DNA of 64,000 nt from Spirochaetota bacterium (lineage in GTDB: Bacteria; Spirochaetota; Spirochaetia; SZUA-6): the NCBI GenBank assembly GCA_013151965.1, contig JAADHF010000131.1:46409-110408 (forward strand), read 5' to 3'. The position numbers and the translations under genes were made by a program. Below the pieces are notes generated by a model, which was not told where the DNA came from, searched no databases, and saw only the letters and a program-made list of their open reading frames with translations. Positions 32,537 through 64,000 of the stretch are shown one piece after another. The first letter of the stretch is position 1. Every line of letters starts with the position of its first letter.

Positions 32537-32998
32537 ATGGAGAGGGGAATGATGAAACATTCGAAATTAATGGAAGAAAGAATACGGCGGACAAGGGTTC
32601 TCTTTAAGGAGCTCGGATATAAAATATTCAATGCAGAAGCAGGTGAAGATGTATATACGGCGGGTTTCGAAAAGGAAGACGGACTGCAGGGCGGATTCTT
32701 TATAGACAGAGAGAGTAAATTCCTTGAAGTGACATATACATTTTCATTTCCGCCGTCGCTGTCCGATTTTTTAAAGGAAAGACTGGAGGATATGCTTAAG
32801 GTATGTTATGAATTCGGCTGTTATACGAATATTCAGAAGGGGGAAAAAGAGTTTAATTTCTCCGTATTTTCGAAGATATATTTTGCAGGTCTTAACTATT
32901 ACTCATTACGGGATTCACTGCGTGATTTCAGCGAGTGTATTGCAATGCTGACCGATCTTCTTGCAATCAGCAAGAATGATGATAAAGAGGAGGGATAG
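32537..32998 (+). CDS. Hypothetical protein, possibly YbjN / T3SS-chaperone-like fold (start may be 32549 or 32552)
   Basis: Small acidic alpha/beta protein within the gene cluster; the fold call is tentative. Confidence 0.6.
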   Translation: MERGMMKHSKLMEERIRRTRVLFKELGYKIFNAEAGEDVYTAGFEKEDGLQGGFFIDRESKFLEVTYTFSFPPSLSDFLKERLEDMLKVCYEFGCYTNIQKGEKEFNFSVFSKIYFAGLNYYSLRDSLRDFSECIAMLTDLLAISKNDDKEEG

Positions 32999-56381: not shown

Positions 56382-57473
56382 TCATCTTTTATAAAAAGGG
56401 AGTCTTACAACTTCCGCTCTTATTTTCCTGCTGTTATTGTTAATAATAAAACTGCTGCCCGGCTCTGACAAATCCGGAATAACATACCCCATGCCGATGG
56501 TTTTCTTAATATACGGCCCGTATGTTGCACTTGTTACTTTTCCGGCCTCTTTGCCGTCTTCGGAAACAATGGTGTTGCCGTGTCTTGGAATTCCGGGTTT
56601 AAGTGTTTTAAATCCCACAAGCTTTCTCTTTACACCATTATTTTTCTGCTCTGAAAGTATTTTTTTTCCTAAATAACCGGTATCGCCTTTTTTTTTTACC
56701 GCCCATCCTATGCCGGCTTCTACCGGTGTATGGTCTTCATCGATATCATTTCCATAGAGCATGTATGACGCCTCTATTCTTAAAGTGTCACGCGCCCCTA
56801 ACCCGCAGGGCATTACATTGCTTTTTGCTGTTTCCAGTACGGCTTTCCATATCTCTACGGTTCTGTCCGCCGATGCAATGATCTCGAAACCATCCTCCCC
56901 TGTGTATCCTGTTCCGGAAACAATTACGGGTTCACTGCAGAAATCGATTTCGGAAAAATAAAAATGCGAGGGCAATGTTTTTCCTCCGCCCAATGTTTCG
57001 TTTAGAATCTCATAAGCCAATGGCCCCTGTAATGCAAGCATTCCAAGGCTGTCGGAGAGATTTTTTACTTTTACAGAAGAAAATTTTTCAGCATGTTTCT
57101 TTATCCACGAATAATCTTTCTCTATATTGGATGCATTGACGACAAGAAAATATTTATCATCGTTATACTTCAGTATAATAAGATCGTCTATAATGCCGCC
57201 GTTTTCTTTGCAGAGCAGGGTATAGAAGGCCTGGCCGTTTTTAAAATGCGATGCATCGTTTGTACTTAAAAATTGAATAAAATCAAATGCATCTCTGCCT
57301 TCTATCAGTATCTGTCCCATATGTGATATATCAAAAATACCTGATTTCGTGCGGACATGGTTATGCTCCTCCTTTATCGATCCGTATAGAACGGGGAGGA
57401 CAAAGCCGTGAAAATCCACCATTTTTGCCTTTAAGCTTACATGTTCGTCATAAAGCGGTGTTTTAGTGCTCAT
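56382..57473 (-). CDS. gcvT: Aminomethyltransferase (glycine cleavage T protein)
   Basis: TPLYDEH, FDISHMG, GGIIDD, TGYTGEDGFE, CGLGARDTLRIEA. Confidence 0.95.
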   Translation of the reverse strand: MSTKTPLYDEHVSLKAKMVDFHGFVLPVLYGSIKEEHNHVRTKSGIFDISHMGQILIEGRDAFDFIQFLSTNDASHFKNGQAFYTLLCKENGGIIDDLIILKYNDDKYFLVVNASNIEKDYSWIKKHAEKFSSVKVKNLSDSLGMLALQGPLAYEILNETLGGGKTLPSHFYFSEIDFCSEPVIVSGTGYTGEDGFEIIASADRTVEIWKAVLETAKSNVMPCGLGARDTLRIEASYMLYGNDIDEDHTPVEAGIGWAVKKKGDTGYLGKKILSEQKNNGVKRKLVGFKTLKPGIPRHGNTIVSEDGKEAGKVTSATYGPYIKKTIGMGYVIPDLSEPGSSFIINNNSRKIRAEVVRLPFYKR

Positions 57474-57500: not shown

Positions 57501-59996
57501 TTAATCGAGTAACGGATTGCCCGTTCTGCTGTTTTTGTCCGTTGTTCCTGTAGTATCCGATTTGAGATTGCCAAGACCTTCAATTGAGCCGGGAAGATTA
57601 AAAGTGTTGTTTCCGAGGTCTTCCGGTAAAATTGAGCTCCTGATATTTTCTTTAACTGTTCGTTTTCTCTTAGCTTCATATTCACAGAGTGTGTCGAATT
57701 TTTTCGGTTCCGTTCCGGCAAGAAAGATATGTTTCTCTGTTTTCTTGCAGTATTCAGTCGGCAGAAGTCCGGATTTGCTGCATACCGTTACCTCACGCAG
57801 GCCGGTGTCCGGTTTTATAAAATCTTCTATCGGCAGATTCTTATGAACTTCCTGCATAAATTTAACCCATACAGGGCCTGCGAATGTCGAGCCTGTCGTA
57901 TATACACCGAGTGAGTGGCCTTTTTCATCAAAACCGAACCACAGGGCTGTTGTAATCTGGGGTGTAAATCCTGCCGTCCATACATCGGACCAGTTCTGTG
58001 TCGTTCCGGTTTTGCCTGCGATCGGCCTGTCGAATTTGCCGATTGTTGTAAGTGTAGGCCAGTGAAGTGTTCCGCTCTTTACAGTATTTTCCAGCATATC
58101 AACCATTATGTATGCTGTCTGCGGGCTCATGATCTGCATGGAATCGCCTTTTCGCTTTTGTTTAAGCCTGAGTTCCTTTTCCGGCTCCAGTATTATTTTA
58201 CCGCTTCTGTCTTCGATATACCGTATGGCAATCGGATCTACCTCCCGCCCCTGATTGGGAAAGGTGGCATATGCACGTGCCATACGAAGCGGCGAGACTG
58301 TTATAACACCTAGACCGAGCGGATATTTTCTGGGGAAGACTCTTTCGATCACAGCGGGGTCCGTAAAACCCAGCATTCGGCTTGCCCTTGAAATAGCCGC
58401 GCTGAACCCAATTCCGTCGAGTACCTTTAAGGAAGGTACGTTCATGGAATGGGCAAGAGCGTACCATAGAAGTACCCGTCCCTTCCATTCGCCCTTGTAA
58501 TTGAGCGGAACATACGGAGTGCCGTCATCATTCCAGAACACTACCGGAGCATCTACTATCATGGTGGATTCCGTGAATTTTCTTGATGAAATCGCTGCGG
58601 AATAGTAGAGAGGTTTAAAAGCCGAACCGGGCTGGACTTTGGATTGGGTTGCCCTGTTAAATTGATCCGTTCTCTCGAATTTCTTGCCGCCCACCATCGC
58701 ATAGATGTAGCCCTTTGTCGAATCCATCGCAATAAGAGCACCCTGAACTTCGGTCTTCTGTTCTTTCTTTGCTTCCACTTTGTAGCCGATTTTTGATGCG
58801 TATCTTATATCGGAGAGATTAAACATGCCGGAAAAGATATCCATTACCGGATTCAAATCATTTAAAAAATAATTTCTGGCCTGAATTTTCTGTCTCCGGC
58901 CCGCTACACGCAGATCATCTATGTTAAATGTAAGAGAAAGCAGATCTATAACATTTAAGAAATTCTCATCGGCATACTTTAACCGTCTGTTTCTCTGAGC
59001 CTGATAGGTGGCATTAATTTTTCTTATTCCTTCCCGCATAACCTTATCTGCAATTTTCTGATAATCGAGGTTCAGTGTTGTGTGGACAACAAGGCCCGCC
59101 TTGTACATATCGATCGAGCCGTAGAGCATATCTTCAAGTTTCTGGCGCACATATTCGCTGAAATAAGGTGCCTTATCTTCTCTTTCGAACCAGGCGGATG
59201 TGATATTTGTCCGTGTATAATCATAGTTATCCCAGTAATCCTGGAATGACAGGCTTGCTTTCTCTTTTGTCAGGTATCCCAGATTTACCATCTGGCTTAA
59301 TATTTCTTTTTGTCTCTGCTTCGCTCTGTTGGGATGGTTAATAGGTGAGTAGTATCCCGGTGCAGCTAACTGAATTACAAGCATCGCAGCTTCCGCAGGT
59401 GTTATATCACGAACAGAGTGTTTAAAGTAGAACTGAGAGGCGGTTTCCACTCCGTAGGTATTATGGCCGAAGTACATTTCATTTAAATACATCTCTAGAA
59501 TCTCGTTTTTTGTATAGCGCCTTTCCAACTGTATCGCCCACCATAATTCGATGAGTTTTCTTTTTAATGAAATGTCGGATCTGTCTGTATAAAGGGTTCC
59601 TGCAAGCTGTTGCGTTATTGTACTTCCGCCCTGAAAGAATTGACCTGTAATTATATGCCAGCCCGCTTTTATGATATCCTGAATTCTATAACCGTGATGC
59701 TCATAAAAATGCCTGTCTTCCCGGGTCAGTAATGCTTCTATAAGAATCTTCGGCATCTCATCTATGGAAACGATTTCCCTTTTTTCGCTGGAAAAAAATT
59801 CGGTGATAAGCCTTCCCTTTATATCGAGTATCTGAGTCGGAAGTGCAGGCTTGTGCTCGCCGAAAGCCTCGCTTAAGTCTATGTTTCTGGTAGCGGCCAG
59901 GACAACCCCTATGGAAGCACCTATAATAACAGCCGTAATAATTAATAACCCGAGCAGAATTTCAGTGAGGAATTTCCTATTTTTTCTAGATTTCAT
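57501..59996 (-). CDS. Class A penicillin-binding protein (PBP1A family)
   Basis: Transglycosylase EDRHFYEH, GGSTITQQL, KRKLIE; transpeptidase SAFK, SMN, KTGT. Confidence 0.93.
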   Translation of the reverse strand: MKSRKNRKFLTEILLGLLIITAVIIGASIGVVLAATRNIDLSEAFGEHKPALPTQILDIKGRLITEFFSSEKREIVSIDEMPKILIEALLTREDRHFYEHHGYRIQDIIKAGWHIITGQFFQGGSTITQQLAGTLYTDRSDISLKRKLIELWWAIQLERRYTKNEILEMYLNEMYFGHNTYGVETASQFYFKHSVRDITPAEAAMLVIQLAAPGYYSPINHPNRAKQRQKEILSQMVNLGYLTKEKASLSFQDYWDNYDYTRTNITSAWFEREDKAPYFSEYVRQKLEDMLYGSIDMYKAGLVVHTTLNLDYQKIADKVMREGIRKINATYQAQRNRRLKYADENFLNVIDLLSLTFNIDDLRVAGRRQKIQARNYFLNDLNPVMDIFSGMFNLSDIRYASKIGYKVEAKKEQKTEVQGALIAMDSTKGYIYAMVGGKKFERTDQFNRATQSKVQPGSAFKPLYYSAAISSRKFTESTMIVDAPVVFWNDDGTPYVPLNYKGEWKGRVLLWYALAHSMNVPSLKVLDGIGFSAAISRASRMLGFTDPAVIERVFPRKYPLGLGVITVSPLRMARAYATFPNQGREVDPIAIRYIEDRSGKIILEPEKELRLKQKRKGDSMQIMSPQTAYIMVDMLENTVKSGTLHWPTLTTIGKFDRPIAGKTGTTQNWSDVWTAGFTPQITTALWFGFDEKGHSLGVYTTGSTFAGPVWVKFMQEVHKNLPIEDFIKPDTGLREVTVCSKSGLLPTEYCKKTEKHIFLAGTEPKKFDTLCEYEAKRKRTVKENIRSSILPEDLGNNTFNLPGSIEGLGNLKSDTTGTTDKNSRTGNPLLD

Positions 59997-60047
59997 TAGG
60001 ACAAATTAAGAGACTTTTGTGTAAAATTGTCAAGATCAATGTTGGCT

Positions 60048-60083
60048 AAAAAAAAGAGGCCAGTCCTTTTAAGAGACTGGCCT
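60048..60083 (-). terminator. Strong intrinsic terminator
   Basis: Minus strand AGGCCAGTC-TCTTAAAAG-GACTGGCCT followed by C and 8 T. Confidence 0.85.
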
Positions 60084-60145
60084 ACCCGTTAGGGTGCCGG
60101 TTAATATAGTAAACTGGGAGGGGAACTATATTAGGATACCGACAC
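60048..60145 (-). ncRNA. Candidate small RNA (about 98 nt) with a long stem-loop, C-rich loop and terminator
   Basis: GUGUCGGU/ACCGGCAC and UAAUAUAGU/ACUAUAUUA helices enclose the loop UCCCCUCCCAGUUU; sigma28-like promoter upstream and terminator downstream. Confidence 0.6.
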
Positions 60146-60150
60146 TTTTA

Positions 60151-60177
60151 TTATCGACAACACTTTAAAAATACTTA
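60151..60177 (-). promoter_or_regulatory. sigma28 (FliA)-like promoter
   Basis: TAAG (60177-60174), N15, GTCGATAA (60158-60151), against the consensus TAAA-N15-GCCGATAA. Confidence 0.6.
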
Positions 60178-61155
60178 ATATTCTTTAATAAGCATATCAA
60201 AAACCAGAGAAACTTTGTACGTTTTATTCTTCTTTACCGTTACCTTTCTTGTAAGACTGTAATCATCTATTTTTATTCTTATCAAATGTTCACCTCCCTT
60301 TATTCTTATCCTCTTAAGCTGATAAGGGGCGAGTTTTGTTCCGTCCAGATAGACAACAGCATTTTCCGGCGCTTCGAAAGAAATGGTCGATATGTTTTGT
60401 TTAAGAATTATATTCATACTGTTTGTCTTTCCCGCTTCTATGGTAAATGCCGAGGTGACCTTCTCGAAGGACGCCGATTGTATAAGCAATTCATGAATAC
60501 CTGCATCCAGTTCGACAGGTTTGTTTTTATTGTTAACCTCTTTTCCGTCGATAAAAACGGAATACTGCTCGTTTTTAAAATCTTCAGGTTTTTTTATCGA
60601 AAGCTCGAGGAAGCCTCTGTTTATAACCTCCGGGGCAGCTGAAATATAGAATTCCTTTGTAAATGCCTTGTCGGGAATGCCTTTCATAACGGGCTGTATG
60701 GTTATTAAAAGAGGAAAATCGGATATGGAAACAGGTTTTTTAACAGAAAAGATATTTTCCCGGCTGCCCCTGCCGGCTTTTTTGTCCGTCTGTACGGGTA
60801 TTCTTACGTAGATTCTGTTCTGATAAGGGATAATATGTGAAAATATCCGTATTCCCTTAAAATTTTTTAATCCCTTTGCAGGCAGAGGCTTTAATCTTTT
60901 AAAGAGAATTATCTCGAAACTATCTGCATATCTCTTTAATGTATTTGATTGATGCATCTCTAACGTTAAAGACTTAAGAAATTCTTTATTTCCCTGTATA
61001 TCGAGTACTACGGATTCTTCCAGTTTAAGTTTAGTATTCTTTTCGCTTCCCGACTCTACCGGAAGTGAAATAACGGCGGCAACAGGTGATACAATGGTTT
61101 CTGCGTACAGATAAACCGAAGATGAAAGCAGTATAAGGAAAATGAATCTTTTCAT
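60175..61155 (-). CDS. Exported protein with C-terminal PEGA-like domains
   Basis: Signal peptide; SVFIDGK...LDAGIHEL, APENAVVYLDG...GGEHLIRI. Confidence 0.75.
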   Translation of the reverse strand: MKRFIFLILLSSSVYLYAETIVSPVAAVISLPVESGSEKNTKLKLEESVVLDIQGNKEFLKSLTLEMHQSNTLKRYADSFEIILFKRLKPLPAKGLKNFKGIRIFSHIIPYQNRIYVRIPVQTDKKAGRGSRENIFSVKKPVSISDFPLLITIQPVMKGIPDKAFTKEFYISAAPEVINRGFLELSIKKPEDFKNEQYSVFIDGKEVNNKNKPVELDAGIHELLIQSASFEKVTSAFTIEAGKTNSMNIILKQNISTISFEAPENAVVYLDGTKLAPYQLKRIRIKGGEHLIRIKIDDYSLTRKVTVKKNKTYKVSLVFDMLIKEY

Positions 61156-62075
61156 TTCTTTAATCCGTTAATAAGGGGAACAGGGTTCGTCGGAGCCCCC
61201 TTGCGTCTTATCTCGAAGTGAAGATGCGGACCTGTGGACATTCCTGTACTCCCCACTGCACCGATAATCATACCCGAAGTAACATGTTGATGCAACTCCG
61301 CTTTAATTTCTTTTAAGTGGCCGTACACTGTTTCGTAACCGCCTTTATGCCGGAGTATAATATAATTTCCATACACCTTATTATAGCCCCTTTCTATTAC
61401 AATTCCGTCACGCGCCGCAAAAACATCCGTGCCTGAAGGTGCCGCGATATCTATGCCTGTGTGAAATTCAGGGTGGCCTGTAAAAGGGCTGGTTCTTTCT
61501 CCGTACCCCGAGGAAAGAACGCCTTTGCTTAAGGGAAAGCGGAATAAGAGTTTCAGGAAATAAGCCCGTTCTATCGGATGAAATCTATCGCTTAAATAAA
61601 AGTTGTAGTATGTTTTTACCCCGGCTTCCGTTATGATAAGTTTAATTACAGGTTCGGATTGTCTTACCCTCCATGAAAACATAATATCTTCGAGAGTGGA
61701 TTCCGGTTTAAGCGGGACAAAGATGCCGGGCAAATTTGGTATGAGAATTCTTTTTCTTTTTTTAAGCTCTTCGGGATTACTGATGCGGTTTAGAGTTGAT
61801 ATCGTATCATAAGGCAGATTCAATTGAGCAGCCAGGGCAAACAGGTCGTCACTTTTATGAAGTGTATAGCTGAAAATTATAACCGGAGGAAACTTATTAT
61901 CCTTCTTGTTCTTATTTCTGCTTTTCCAGCGGTAGTATGTTTTTATGTCATCCTGCAGCTGTACAAATAGAGGATCATTCCGGTTAAGATAATGTATCTC
62001 CGGATAATCTGCAAATGTTTTAAAACTGAATATAAACAGTAACAGGAATATACTGAATTTATTTATACTAATAAT
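61152..62075 (-). CDS. LysM + M23 metallopeptidase (probable ATT start near 62075; the ORF track starts at 61823)
   Basis: HTGID, YGHL, STGPHLHFE. The frame stays open upstream of 61823 through a LysM start (YTLHKSDDLFALA) and a signal peptide (NKFSIFLLLFIFSFKTFA) to a TAA at 62081. Confidence 0.85.
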   Translation of the reverse strand: MISINKFSIFLLLFIFSFKTFADYPEIHYLNRNDPLFVQLQDDIKTYYRWKSRNKNKKDNKFPPVIIFSYTLHKSDDLFALAAQLNLPYDTISTLNRISNPEELKKRKRILIPNLPGIFVPLKPESTLEDIMFSWRVRQSEPVIKLIITEAGVKTYYNFYLSDRFHPIERAYFLKLLFRFPLSKGVLSSGYGERTSPFTGHPEFHTGIDIAAPSGTDVFAARDGIVIERGYNKVYGNYIILRHKGGYETVYGHLKEIKAELHQHVTSGMIIGAVGSTGMSTGPHLHFEIRRKGAPTNPVPLINGLKK

Positions 62076-63138
62076 CTTTTAATTCCTCTATGCCGGAGAG
62101 ATATCTTAGGCCTGCTTCCGCCAGTGCGGACATTTCATTTTCTCCCGGATAAACTTTAACCGGTGCAATCCATTTTGTCGCCTCCTCTATCCATTCGGTT
62201 AACGGCGGGTGGGCCATGCCTCCTGTAAGAATAATCATGTCCGCTTTTCCTTTAAGTACAGCCGCCATCGCCCCGATTTCTTTCGATATCTGGTATGCCA
62301 TAGCCTCGAATACTTCTAAGGTACGGGCATCGCCCTTCTTAATTCTTTCGGTTATTTCTATGCCGTCATCGGTCCCGATATAACCCAGCAAACCGGATTT
62401 TTTGGTAAGAATATGGTTAAGTTCCTCTGCACTTCCGTATTTGCCTGAAAAACATAAATTTACAAGTTGTGTTGTGGGCAGAGAACCTGTCCTCTGCGGA
62501 GAAAAAGGTCCGCCGTCATTGGCATTGTTTACATCCACAATTCTGCCCTTTTTAAGCGGTGCCACGGAAATACCGCCTCCCAGATGAACGACTATAAGAT
62601 TTAAATCGAACATAGTTGTTCTTAGACTGTCAGCCGCTCTGCGTGCCGCTGCTCTTATATTAAGAGCATGTGACTGGCACTTTCGTTCCATGCCCGGAAA
62701 ACCCGAATAACGTGCCAGGGGTTCGAATTCATCGACACCTACCGGGTCTGTTATAAAAGCGGGGCAGTTAAAGCGCCTGCCTAATAAATCTGCAATCAGT
62801 GCGCCGAGATTGGAGGCATGGCTGCCGTATTTCGACTCTTTCAGATCTCTGATCATCGATTCCGTGATTTTGTAACTTCCTGCGGGGACCGGTTTTACAA
62901 GTCCTCCCCGTCCCACTACGGCATCGAGAGTTTCGATTTTCTGCTCTTCTAGAAAGTCCTCTACGGCTTTAATCCTGAAGTTGAGCTGATCTATGGGATT
63001 TTTCCGCTTTTCAAGTATATCAGGGTCATGTTTTATATTTCGTGCGGATCCTTCTGCGGGTTTGCTGTTTTCTGCTCCATAATAAACTGCAACCTTTGTA
63101 GATGTAGATCCGGGGTTGATTATACAGATGGAAAACAT
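62068..63138 (-). CDS. buk: Butyrate kinase
   Basis: INPGSTSTK, VGRGG, HASNLG, DPVGVDE, HALN, HLGGGIS, GPFSPQR, YPGENEM. Confidence 0.95.
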   Translation of the reverse strand: MFSICIINPGSTSTKVAVYYGAENSKPAEGSARNIKHDPDILEKRKNPIDQLNFRIKAVEDFLEEQKIETLDAVVGRGGLVKPVPAGSYKITESMIRDLKESKYGSHASNLGALIADLLGRRFNCPAFITDPVGVDEFEPLARYSGFPGMERKCQSHALNIRAAARRAADSLRTTMFDLNLIVVHLGGGISVAPLKKGRIVDVNNANDGGPFSPQRTGSLPTTQLVNLCFSGKYGSAEELNHILTKKSGLLGYIGTDDGIEITERIKKGDARTLEVFEAMAYQISKEIGAMAAVLKGKADMIILTGGMAHPPLTEWIEEATKWIAPVKVYPGENEMSALAEAGLRYLSGIEELKDY

Positions 63139-63191
63139 CGGGAACCTCCTTAAATAAGACCCGGGTAATTTTTACCTGTAGTATCTGTTTT

Positions 63192-64000
63192 TTAAGTATT
63201 TACCGATGAAACACCTAAAAGGATAGAATTGAGTTTTTCCGACTTCGTATCCGAACGGGACAGAAGAATCACGGGTGCTTTTGCTCCTGCAATAATACCG
63301 CCGGAGGGAAACCCGGCCTGGTGAATTAAAGATTTACCGAGAATGTTCCCGCTTGCAATATCGGGAACCACAAGTATATCGGCGTCGCCTTTGATTTTAG
63401 AGTTAACACCTTTTAATTCGCATGCTTCCCTGCTCACTGCAAGATCGAGTGCAAGGGGTCCTTCGATAACGGCATCTTTTATCTGCCCCCGCATACCCAT
63501 CATATCAAGTGCGGCAGCTTCCACGGTGGATTGTATCGCCGGATTAACAACCTCCACAGCGGAGAGCAGAGCAACCTTTGGTATTTTTACACCGAGAGAA
63601 CGGAAAAGGCTTACGGCATTTTTTATTATATCAATTTTTTCCGTAATGCCGGGTGCTATATTAAGACCGCCGTCCGTAACTCCCAGGAAGGAACCGTCTT
63701 CCTTTTCAAATACAGCGATGTGTGATAAAAGCCCGCCCCGGCGAAGCCCGTAACCGGCATTAAGTACCTCTTTCATCAGCAGGGCTGTCGGAACATGCCC
63801 CTTCATCAGGCACTGTGCCCTGCCGCTGCTGACCTCCTGAACGGCTTTTCTCGAAGCCTCCGGTTCATTATGCGCATCGATACTGCTGTACTTCCGCAGG
63901 CCCGCTTTTTTGGCATTCTTCGTAATTATATCCGCGCTGCCTATAAGCAGGGGAGAACAAATCCCAAGATCGGATGCCTCTTTTAATGCATGGAATATCC
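63192..64000 (-). CDS. ptb: Phosphate butyryl/acyltransferase (5' end beyond the window)
   Basis: LMKG, LLSH, TDGGLNIAP, EGPLALDLA, DILVVPDIASGN, LLSRSD. The frame is open to the window edge; lies upstream of buk. Confidence 0.9.
   Translation of the reverse strand, partial: IFHALKEASDLGICSPLLIGSADIITKNAKKAGLRKYSSIDAHNEPEASRKAVQEVSSGRAQCLMKGHVPTALLMKEVLNAGYGLRRGGLLSHIAVFEKEDGSFLGVTDGGLNIAPGITEKIDIIKNAVSLFRSLGVKIPKVALLSAVEVVNPAIQSTVEAAALDMMGMRGQIKDAVIEGPLALDLAVSREACELKGVNSKIKGDADILVVPDIASGNILGKSLIHQAGFPSGGIIAGAKAPVILLSRSDTKSEKLNSILLGVSSVNT

Follow-up and report, generated by a model that had tools for sequence, protein, structure and literature searches.

We describe here a small RNA (sRNA) gene located on the minus strand of a 64,000-nucleotide (nt) stretch of DNA from a member of the Spirochaetota (contig JAADHF010000131.1; this whole stretch is hereafter called the window). 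With its promoter, the element occupies positions 60048-60177, between a gene for a PEGA-domain protein and pbp1A, which codes for a class A penicillin-binding protein. Judging from sequence comparison over the phylum, this is a real, previously undescribed, and widely conserved spirochaete sRNA gene. The function towards which we lean, with moderate confidence, is that of a sigma-28-driven, trans-acting sRNA of about 100 nt, conserved across much of the Spirochaetota, which would repress the translation of fliF, fliP, and ftsZ. Such an sRNA probably links flagellum building to cell division.

Layout, conservation, and structure of the element

The original prediction had described TAAG-N15-GTCGATAA followed by a two-helix stem, a loop, and a terminator, and we recovered all of these elements on the minus strand where it had placed them. 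The 9-bp terminator with U8 that it announced was borne out as regards the terminator itself and the T8 tract, the stem having 10 pairs in the terminator scan. The TAA of the TAAG −35-like box is at the same time the stop codon of the upstream PEGA-domain open reading frame (ORF) of 326 amino acids (aa). A spacer of 15 nt separates TAAG from GTCGATAA, the whole promoter-like stretch covering 60177-60151 on the minus strand, and hairpin 1 begins 5 nt past the GTCGATAA box. The −10 consensus of sigma-28 promoters is GCCGATAA, in the form TAAA-N15-GCCGATAA. Hairpin 1 presents an apical loop of 14 nt, UCCCCUCCCAGUUU (60124-60111, minus strand), most bases of which have a computed probability of being unpaired of 0.77-1.0, and a short linker separates it from the terminator. 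The minimum free energy of the fold is −36.4 kcal/mol (z = −4.64), none of 200 shuffled sequences being as stable. Fold, computed accessibility, and covariation (see below) agree on a single-stranded C-rich motif displayed in the loop of a stable hairpin. The absence of coding capacity was also confirmed on the minus strand, where no ORF of at least 20 aa lies across 60040-60160; on the plus strand, two tiny ORFs, one of 21 and one of 24 aa, share part of the sRNA region.

No Rfam family accounts for the element. At gathering thresholds, Rfam 15 gave no match in the whole window, and a scan of 15 loci carrying diverse members of the sRNA gave none either. The best match in evalue mode, RprA (RF00034), reaches 22.6 bits for a gathering threshold of 70 (E = 3.1), which is chance level; only the terminator hairpin and the U-tract align, and RprA is not a relative. 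The published literature that we searched holds no description of this sRNA; supplementary files were outside the search and could hold one.

The element is conserved far beyond the genome of the window. Within the same order, a 171-nt query matches once and once only in each of 40 genomes out of 41 (8 families, 22 genera), the sole genome without a match being 78% complete, and the conserved core extends from the −10 box through hairpin 1. The exact 22-nt pattern formed by the loop and the inner stem is present in at least 120 species-representative contigs. All 80 of the contig titles printed are those of spirochaetes, including Spirochaetaceae, Sediminispirochaeta, Alkalispirochaeta alkalica DSM 8900, Marispirochaeta, metagenome-assembled genomes (MAGs) labelled Treponema, and one cave MAG labelled Borreliella. 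We then used a covariance model, R1, which gives the window sRNA 88.6 bits, with strict filters against 151 genomes sampled over the phylum. It matches 30 of them, other classes included, and the 29 hits outside the window's genome all show a TAAA/TAAG-N15-NCCGA[TA]A[AT]-like box, the hairpin, and the terminator. Of these 29 hits, 27 have the exact loop core (G)UUCCCCUCCCA and two have close variants of it. Likewise, GUUCCCCUCCCA is invariant in 20 loci found by BLAST; most of the loci aligned below came from the pattern that fixes the loop and inner-stem region.

The strict R1 search under-detects, and its absences are unreliable. Among 20 "negative" genomes examined further by lenient searching, patterns, and pbp1A synteny, 8 proved to have a member (G094, G178, G083, G072, G064, G116, G042, and G157; G059 is doubtful). 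No member turned up in G164, G048, G053, G135, G091, G132, G066, and others. In G164, which we take to be comparable to Borrelia, FliA is below the cut-off. Among the genomes bearing a member, those of 1.14 Mb and 2.8 Mb are presumably Treponema-like, and we call them so hereafter. Two further genomes deserve mention in their own right. G185 (1.5 Mb, 99% complete) possesses the sRNA, FliA, and FliP, and gives no FliI match at E ≤ 1e-60. G056 is complete, and our searches did not find the canonical sRNA in it; at locus L328, just past a stop codon, it carries a C-rich stretch, CUUCCCCCUCCCUAGG, right before a strong terminator and devoid of a sigma-28 box, which may be an analogue derived from a 3' untranslated region (UTR).

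The secondary structure was examined by covariation, using an alignment (A1) of 59 non-redundant sequences out of 130 (90% identity filter), from which 6 sequences shortened by the T-run rule were left out. RNAalifold predicts three helices. Over these, 95.4% of the cells are paired, with compensatory changes at 15 of 22 pairs, and all 500 column shuffles fall short on every one of the five measures; when the partners are slid by 1-3 columns, pairing falls to 31-49%. Helix 1 is paired at 96.9% and helix 2 at 95.2%, and compensatory changes affect all 10 pairs of helix 3, i.e., the terminator. U-A to U-G changes are frequent (22 of the 59 sequences at one pair), and such G-U substitutions are tolerated on the minus strand only, which designates the minus strand as the RNA strand. 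The loop and four inner-stem pairs never vary. The proposal of an unannotated sRNA gene is upheld, the element being single-copy, present order-wide and beyond, and endowed with covarying stems. A separate observation concerns GUGUCGG, the outer helix's 5' strand (A1 columns 4-10, window 60145-60139), which shows per-column sequence conservation of at least 90%. This conservation, which goes beyond pairing, hints at a second functional site or at a constraint on the initially transcribed region.

The promoter was analyzed in 131 analysable loci out of 140. The −10 box is GACGATAA in 67 of them and GTCGATAA in 36, the remainder being NNCGA[TAC]A[ATCG] variants, and its end is always located 18-23 nt ahead of the inner stem. 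At exactly N15, a −35 box of the TAAA, TAAT, TAAG, or TAAC type is found in 88 loci. The boxes, −35 TAA[ATG] and −10 NNCGATAA, hold their N15 spacing over a spacer whose sequence is free to vary, and they can be seen by eye at loci with differing upstream sequence. They match the sigma-28 promoter of Treponema denticola flaB2, for which the available text of the mapping study, based on RLM-RACE (rapid cDNA-end amplification mediated by RNA ligase), gives −35 TTAA and −10 CCGATAA (PMC9481697). The window's genome codes for FliA (289.6 bits for a cut-off of 189.6), as do 149 of the 151 genomes sampled over the phylum. TAAG-N15-GTCGATAA stands directly upstream of the RNA, boxes of this type are kept with their spacing in other classes, and the sigma-28-type promoter initially proposed is retained as the predicted one. 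A genome-wide scan for sigma-28 promoters is too loose to be informative, with 291 hits versus 134 in the reversed control. Upstream of the flaB genes, one displays TAAA-N15-TCCGAGTA and the others no clear box. Elsewhere in the window's genome, at C3:28620 outside the window, a perfect sigma-28-like TAAG-N15-GCCGATAA is divergent from flaB, with no ORF of at least 80 aa close by; it could mark another small transcript.

Complementarity to the start regions of fliF, fliP, and ftsZ

An anti-Shine-Dalgarno loop acting in trans on the flagellar regulon had also been proposed. We scored orthologous start regions with the invariant 12-mer, at a threshold of −17 kcal/mol, and found that fliF, fliP, and ftsZ carry sites complementary to the loop mainly in genomes that bear the sRNA, which is in keeping with this proposal. 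For fliF, the threshold is reached in 23 of 25 sRNA-bearing genomes (15 of 17 R1-positive, 7 of 7 later found, and the window's own) versus 4 of 12 without a detected sRNA. For ftsZ, it is reached in 18 of 23 (16 of 21, G142, and the window's own) versus 3 of 19; the site of G142 is an exact GGGAGGGGAA before the ATG, and one of the three genomes with a ftsZ site and no detected sRNA, G143, is congeneric with an sRNA-bearing genome. The corresponding figures for fliP are 16 of 29 (15 of 28 and the window's own) versus 3 of 19; other orders of the window's own class give 0 of 9 and other classes 15 of 19. As a control, 15 other genes of the flagellar operon were scored in R1-positive regions, where 23 of 181 cases are at or below the threshold, among which fliE (6 of 16) and flgE (5 of 11). 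Regarding the latter gene, in five of 11 R1-positive regions (L226, L229, L232, L233, and L238), the flgD-flgE junction holds a loop-complementary GAGGGGA... some 35-45 nt ahead of where flgE starts, i.e., not at the ribosome-binding site.

The sites follow an extended Shine-Dalgarno consensus complementary to the loop, UGGGAGGGGAA, which ends 1-4 nt ahead of the start codon. A typical fliF site reads [UC]GGGAGGGGA[AC] and likewise ends 1-4 nt before the AUG. Genomes devoid of both the sRNA and the motif possess ordinary sites (e.g., AAGGAG or GGTGGAG). The predicted targets thus carry conserved complementary sites where ribosomes would bind.

In the window's own genome, we scored the 13-nt loop against positions −22 to +3 of the candidate starts of 4653 ORFs of at least 100 aa, gene identities being assigned by Pfam and NCBIfam. 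Loop-only energies were used; duplexfold with the full-length sRNA was discarded because, ignoring intramolecular structure, it gives duplexes of unrealistic length. Twelve ORFs lie at −20 kcal/mol or lower. Among the 4653, fliI ranks 4, fliF 5, ftsZ 8, and fliP 10, and the remaining genes of the same flagellar operon lie between −6 and −13 kcal/mol. The complement noticed earlier within the window, GAGGGGAA, is indeed present at the start of the ORF preceding the ComFB-domain gene; it scores −20.4 kcal/mol (rank 12), and this ORF has no Pfam or NCBIfam match. With a reversed loop as control, fliI, fliF, ftsZ, fliP, and the in-window site are all outside the top 15. Rank 1 belongs to a 1069-aa SpiroCoCo coiled-coil protein encoded outside the window (C119:72289), with GGGGAGGGGAAC ahead of its ATG (−25.5 kcal/mol). 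We also noted an GGGAGGGGGAATG site inside fliY (C1:182247), which could start a FliN-only product of 125 aa.

What the comparisons show is a conserved sequence and structure, promoter-like boxes, and a complementarity that co-occurs with the sRNA; from them we infer the transcription of the element, its dependence on FliA, the direction of regulation, and its physiology, in the following way. A promoter of the FliA (sigma-28) type would drive independent transcription of the sRNA, which, FliA being active late in flagellar assembly, would be made late. The long hairpin, whose structure is given by covariation, would display GUUCCCCUCCCA in single-stranded form, and the transcript would end at the intrinsic terminator. 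The loop would pair with the extended G-rich Shine-Dalgarno sites of fliF (MS ring) and ftsZ and, outside the Treponema-like lineages, with that of fliP (export gate). Pairing over the ribosome-binding site would then block initiation. Complementarity and its co-occurrence with the sRNA point to a negative feedback running from the late flagellar stage to the earliest assembly genes and to division, by which late-stage cells would stop seeding new basal bodies and would modulate their division. Since Hfq is reported absent from most spirochaetes in the available text of PMC11607428, the sRNA would act without it.

Genomic neighborhood and alternative explanations

The association of the element with pbp1A is very tight. 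In 111 of 137 loci of the order, pbp1A is directly downstream of the sRNA and on the same strand. Of 27 loci from other orders and classes, 17 show this arrangement when the distance is limited to 600 nt and 21 when it may reach 1.1 kb, the 1.14-Mb Treponema-like genome included. Upstream, the PEGA gene is found on the same strand in 84 of the 137 loci of the order and in 2 of the 27 others, and an M23 endopeptidase gene takes this place in Treponema-like loci. Across orders and classes, a cell-wall cluster can be recognized that comprises the M23 endopeptidase, sometimes the PEGA protein, the sRNA, and pbp1A (window 57501-61823; L146-L168). In the 1.14-Mb genome, the sRNA lies 2.3 kb from fliA. 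Farther away in the window, genes for an acetate/butyrate-kinase family protein and for a phosphate acetyl/butyryl-transferase are located upstream on the same strand (62068-63806), and the gene for the glycine-cleavage T protein is downstream of pbp1A (56382-57473). The positions of the main features are collected in Table 1.

Table 1. Features of the window discussed in the text, with their positions and the basis of each assignment.
Feature	Position	Strand	Basis or remark
Upstream PEGA-domain gene, 326 aa, stop overlapping the −35	60175..61155	-	Pfam
−35-like TAAG, sigma-28-type promoter	60174..60177	-	Sequence
−10-like box GTCGATAA	60151..60158	-	Sequence
Predicted sRNA, about 98 nt (5' end inferred, 3' end at the end of the T-tract)	60048..60145	-	Fold, conservation, model
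Hairpin 1: 8-bp outer helix (one G-U), internal loop, 9-bp perfect inner helix	60094..60145	-	Fold
Invariant core GUUCCCCUCCCA in the apical loop, proposed seed for G-rich Shine-Dalgarno sites	60115..60126	-	Comparison
Intrinsic terminator stem-loop, 10 pairs (6 G-C), loop of 7	60057..60083	-	Terminator scan
T8 tract of the terminator	60048..60055	-	Sequence, terminator scan
TTGACA, likely −35 of pbp1A's own promoter	60028..60033	-	37 nt ahead of the ATG
pbp1A, class A penicillin-binding protein, downstream neighbor	57501..59996	-	Pfam Transgly and Transpeptidase; NCBIfam PBP_1a_fam, 618 bits
In-window complement GAGGGGAA, at or within the start of the 149/153-aa ORF directly before the ComFB-domain gene	32542..32549	+	Sequence

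The region between the terminator and pbp1A has features of its own. Of 136 loci, 63 have TTGAC at a distance of 35-39 nt ahead of the pbp1A start, and 100 have it anywhere in the spacer. A TAnnnT-like −10 follows TTGAC(A), a few nt before the ATG (window 59996-60047; L002-L170); in the window, a sigma-70 scan did not call this promoter, because the −10 is weak. The pbp1A starts have no Shine-Dalgarno site, and none of the 136 complements the loop at −17 kcal/mol or lower. Altogether, pbp1A seems to have its own promoter with a layout of the leaderless type.

This neighborhood bears directly on one alternative, in which the element would act in cis on pbp1A, as a leader or attenuator or as a transcriptional-interference module setting PBP1A according to the flagellar stage, the short RNA being a by-product. 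Indeed, an sRNA acting purely in trans would not usually keep its linkage to one gene, here pbp1A, through several classes, and the terminator ends only about 15 nt before the putative −35 of pbp1A. However, that same −35 speaks for an independent promoter between the terminator and the ATG, and since pbp1A would have its own promoter and no Shine-Dalgarno site, a read-through transcript would bury its leaderless-type start. The comparative pattern thus depicts neither a pbp1A deprived of a promoter nor one translated by read-through. Moreover, the terminator is strong and conserved, with covariation along its entire stem, and an attenuator leaves unexplained both the invariance of the 12-nt loop across classes and its complementarity to fliF and ftsZ. 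We consider regulation in cis quite unlikely. Neither does the element look like a mere 3' UTR with terminator belonging to the upstream PEGA/M23 operon, with a chance promoter match and no separate function, even though its −35 shares bases with the upstream gene's stop codon and the promoter-like pattern is not significant within a single window (1 found versus 0.14 expected in the 64 kb, and at least one in 14 of 100 shuffles). The boxes, hairpin, and loop are kept where the upstream gene differs, as the PEGA counts given above attest, the boxes hold their spacing while the spacer drifts, and a terminator alone needs no second, longer hairpin with an invariant loop. This makes the 3' UTR explanation very improbable.

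The invariance of the loop can be read in another way. A 12-nt loop that does not change over a phylum is more typical of a contact with a protein or the ribosome than of an sRNA seed, and the 5' strand GUGUCGG is likewise kept more strictly than pairing requires. The C-rich loop could then be recognized by a conserved RNA-binding protein (e.g., a KH-domain or ribosomal protein), the RNA serving as a sponge or cofactor; a CsrA sponge would not fit, because the loop has no GGA motifs. On the other hand, the conserved fliF, ftsZ, and fliP sites, which are lost where the sRNA is not found, would have to be a coincidence, and we regard protein binding as unlikely.

The trans-acting sRNA that we favor has itself to face several observations that weigh against it. 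It gives no account of the very tight linkage to pbp1A. The promoter-like pattern of the window has little weight of its own, as just seen, and the more-than-chance case for the promoter and the RNA comes from conservation. A search of public sequencing runs returned no RNA run containing the stretch, its sole return being one run of unspecified type that shares fewer than 5 words with it. Two R1-positive genomes have weak fliF sites (−14.1 and −16.8 kcal/mol), and G051, G056, and G107 have G-rich fliF/fliP/ftsZ sites with no sRNA detected; G144 has a G-rich site too, and there the pbp1A homologue begins at the end of a contig, so that its upstream region is missing. As the loop core never varies, compensatory covariation between the sRNA and its targets cannot be counted, and as the lineages are not independent, the support is smaller than the co-occurrence counts suggest. 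In five genomes, the exact 10-mer GGGAGGGGAA shows no genome-wide enrichment relative to the reversed control (real versus reversed, 9 and 5, 4 and 6, 50 and 57, 22 and 16, 2 and 1). Several of the best-ranked sites are not conserved as targets either: that of fliI is found in 1 of 20 R1-positive genomes, that of the SpiroCoCo protein is kept in 1 of 6 other genomes, and the internal fliY start reaches −17 kcal/mol or lower in 0 of 12 other regions. Because of this lack of conservation, these three sites are probably due to chance or specific to the lineage. Finally, the position of the pairing is our ground for assuming repression and not activation.

Known flagellar sRNAs and significance for spirochaetes

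The proposed sRNA can be compared with systems described in other phyla. In Escherichia coli, MotR, FliX, UhpU, and FlgO depend, like the spirochaete sRNA as read here, on the flagellar sigma factor, and exert by base pairing a feedback on flagellar genes that is superimposed on the transcriptional hierarchy; according to the available text of that 2023 study, they are UTR-derived, bound by Hfq, and conserved only in some Enterobacteriaceae (PMC10578931). On the contrary, the spirochaete element stands alone between genes, has a promoter and a terminator of its own, and is conserved across classes and predicted to pair with the Shine-Dalgarno sites of fliF, fliP, and ftsZ. The UTR-derived, Hfq-bound type does not describe it, Hfq itself not having been searched for in the window's genome, and Rfam reveals no sequence relationship to the E. 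coli flagellar sRNAs. In Campylobacter jejuni, CJnc170 (FlmR) is FliA-dependent, and its overexpression reduces flagellar length and motility, which similarly amounts to a late-stage damping (Konig et al. 2024, PMC11187230). It differs by its phylum and by the absence of sequence similarity, and the available text of that paper describes no link to fliF, ftsZ, or the cell wall. The targets named in its abstract, flgM and Cj1387c, are those of CJnc230 (FlmE), which is RpoN-dependent (PMC11187230).

Neither RsaE nor RepG was among the matches of our evalue-mode Rfam scan of the region. RsaE/RoxS and RNAIII of Firmicutes and RepG of Helicobacter pylori use C-rich loops to pair with G-rich Shine-Dalgarno sites or leaders without Hfq, and RsaE is unusually widely conserved. 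They differ from the spirochaete sRNA by their regulators, none of which is sigma-28, by their target sets, and by their phyla.

Up to now, spirochaetes have been thinly studied with respect to sRNAs, 6 distinct annotated ones being credited to them in Table 1 of a review (PMC9029176). Conservation of an sRNA seed across the classes of one phylum, as predicted here, is rare. We know of no regulatory sRNA characterized in the syphilis-type Treponema lineage. A broader extension of our proposal, which we hold as tentative and rather doubtful, would make of this RNA a phylum-wide checkpoint, that lineage included: a single sigma-28 sRNA, lodged in the cell-wall cluster, would couple the completion of the periplasmic hook-basal body to division and to flagellar number, through occlusion of the ribosome-binding sites of ftsZ, fliF, and fliP. 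Spirochaetes have a fixed number of periplasmic flagella per cell end, and new motors are built in step with division; to our knowledge, neither this counting nor its coordination with division is understood. A late-stage sRNA acting on the first assembly proteins, FliF and FliP, and on FtsZ would offer a specific and testable hypothesis for both.

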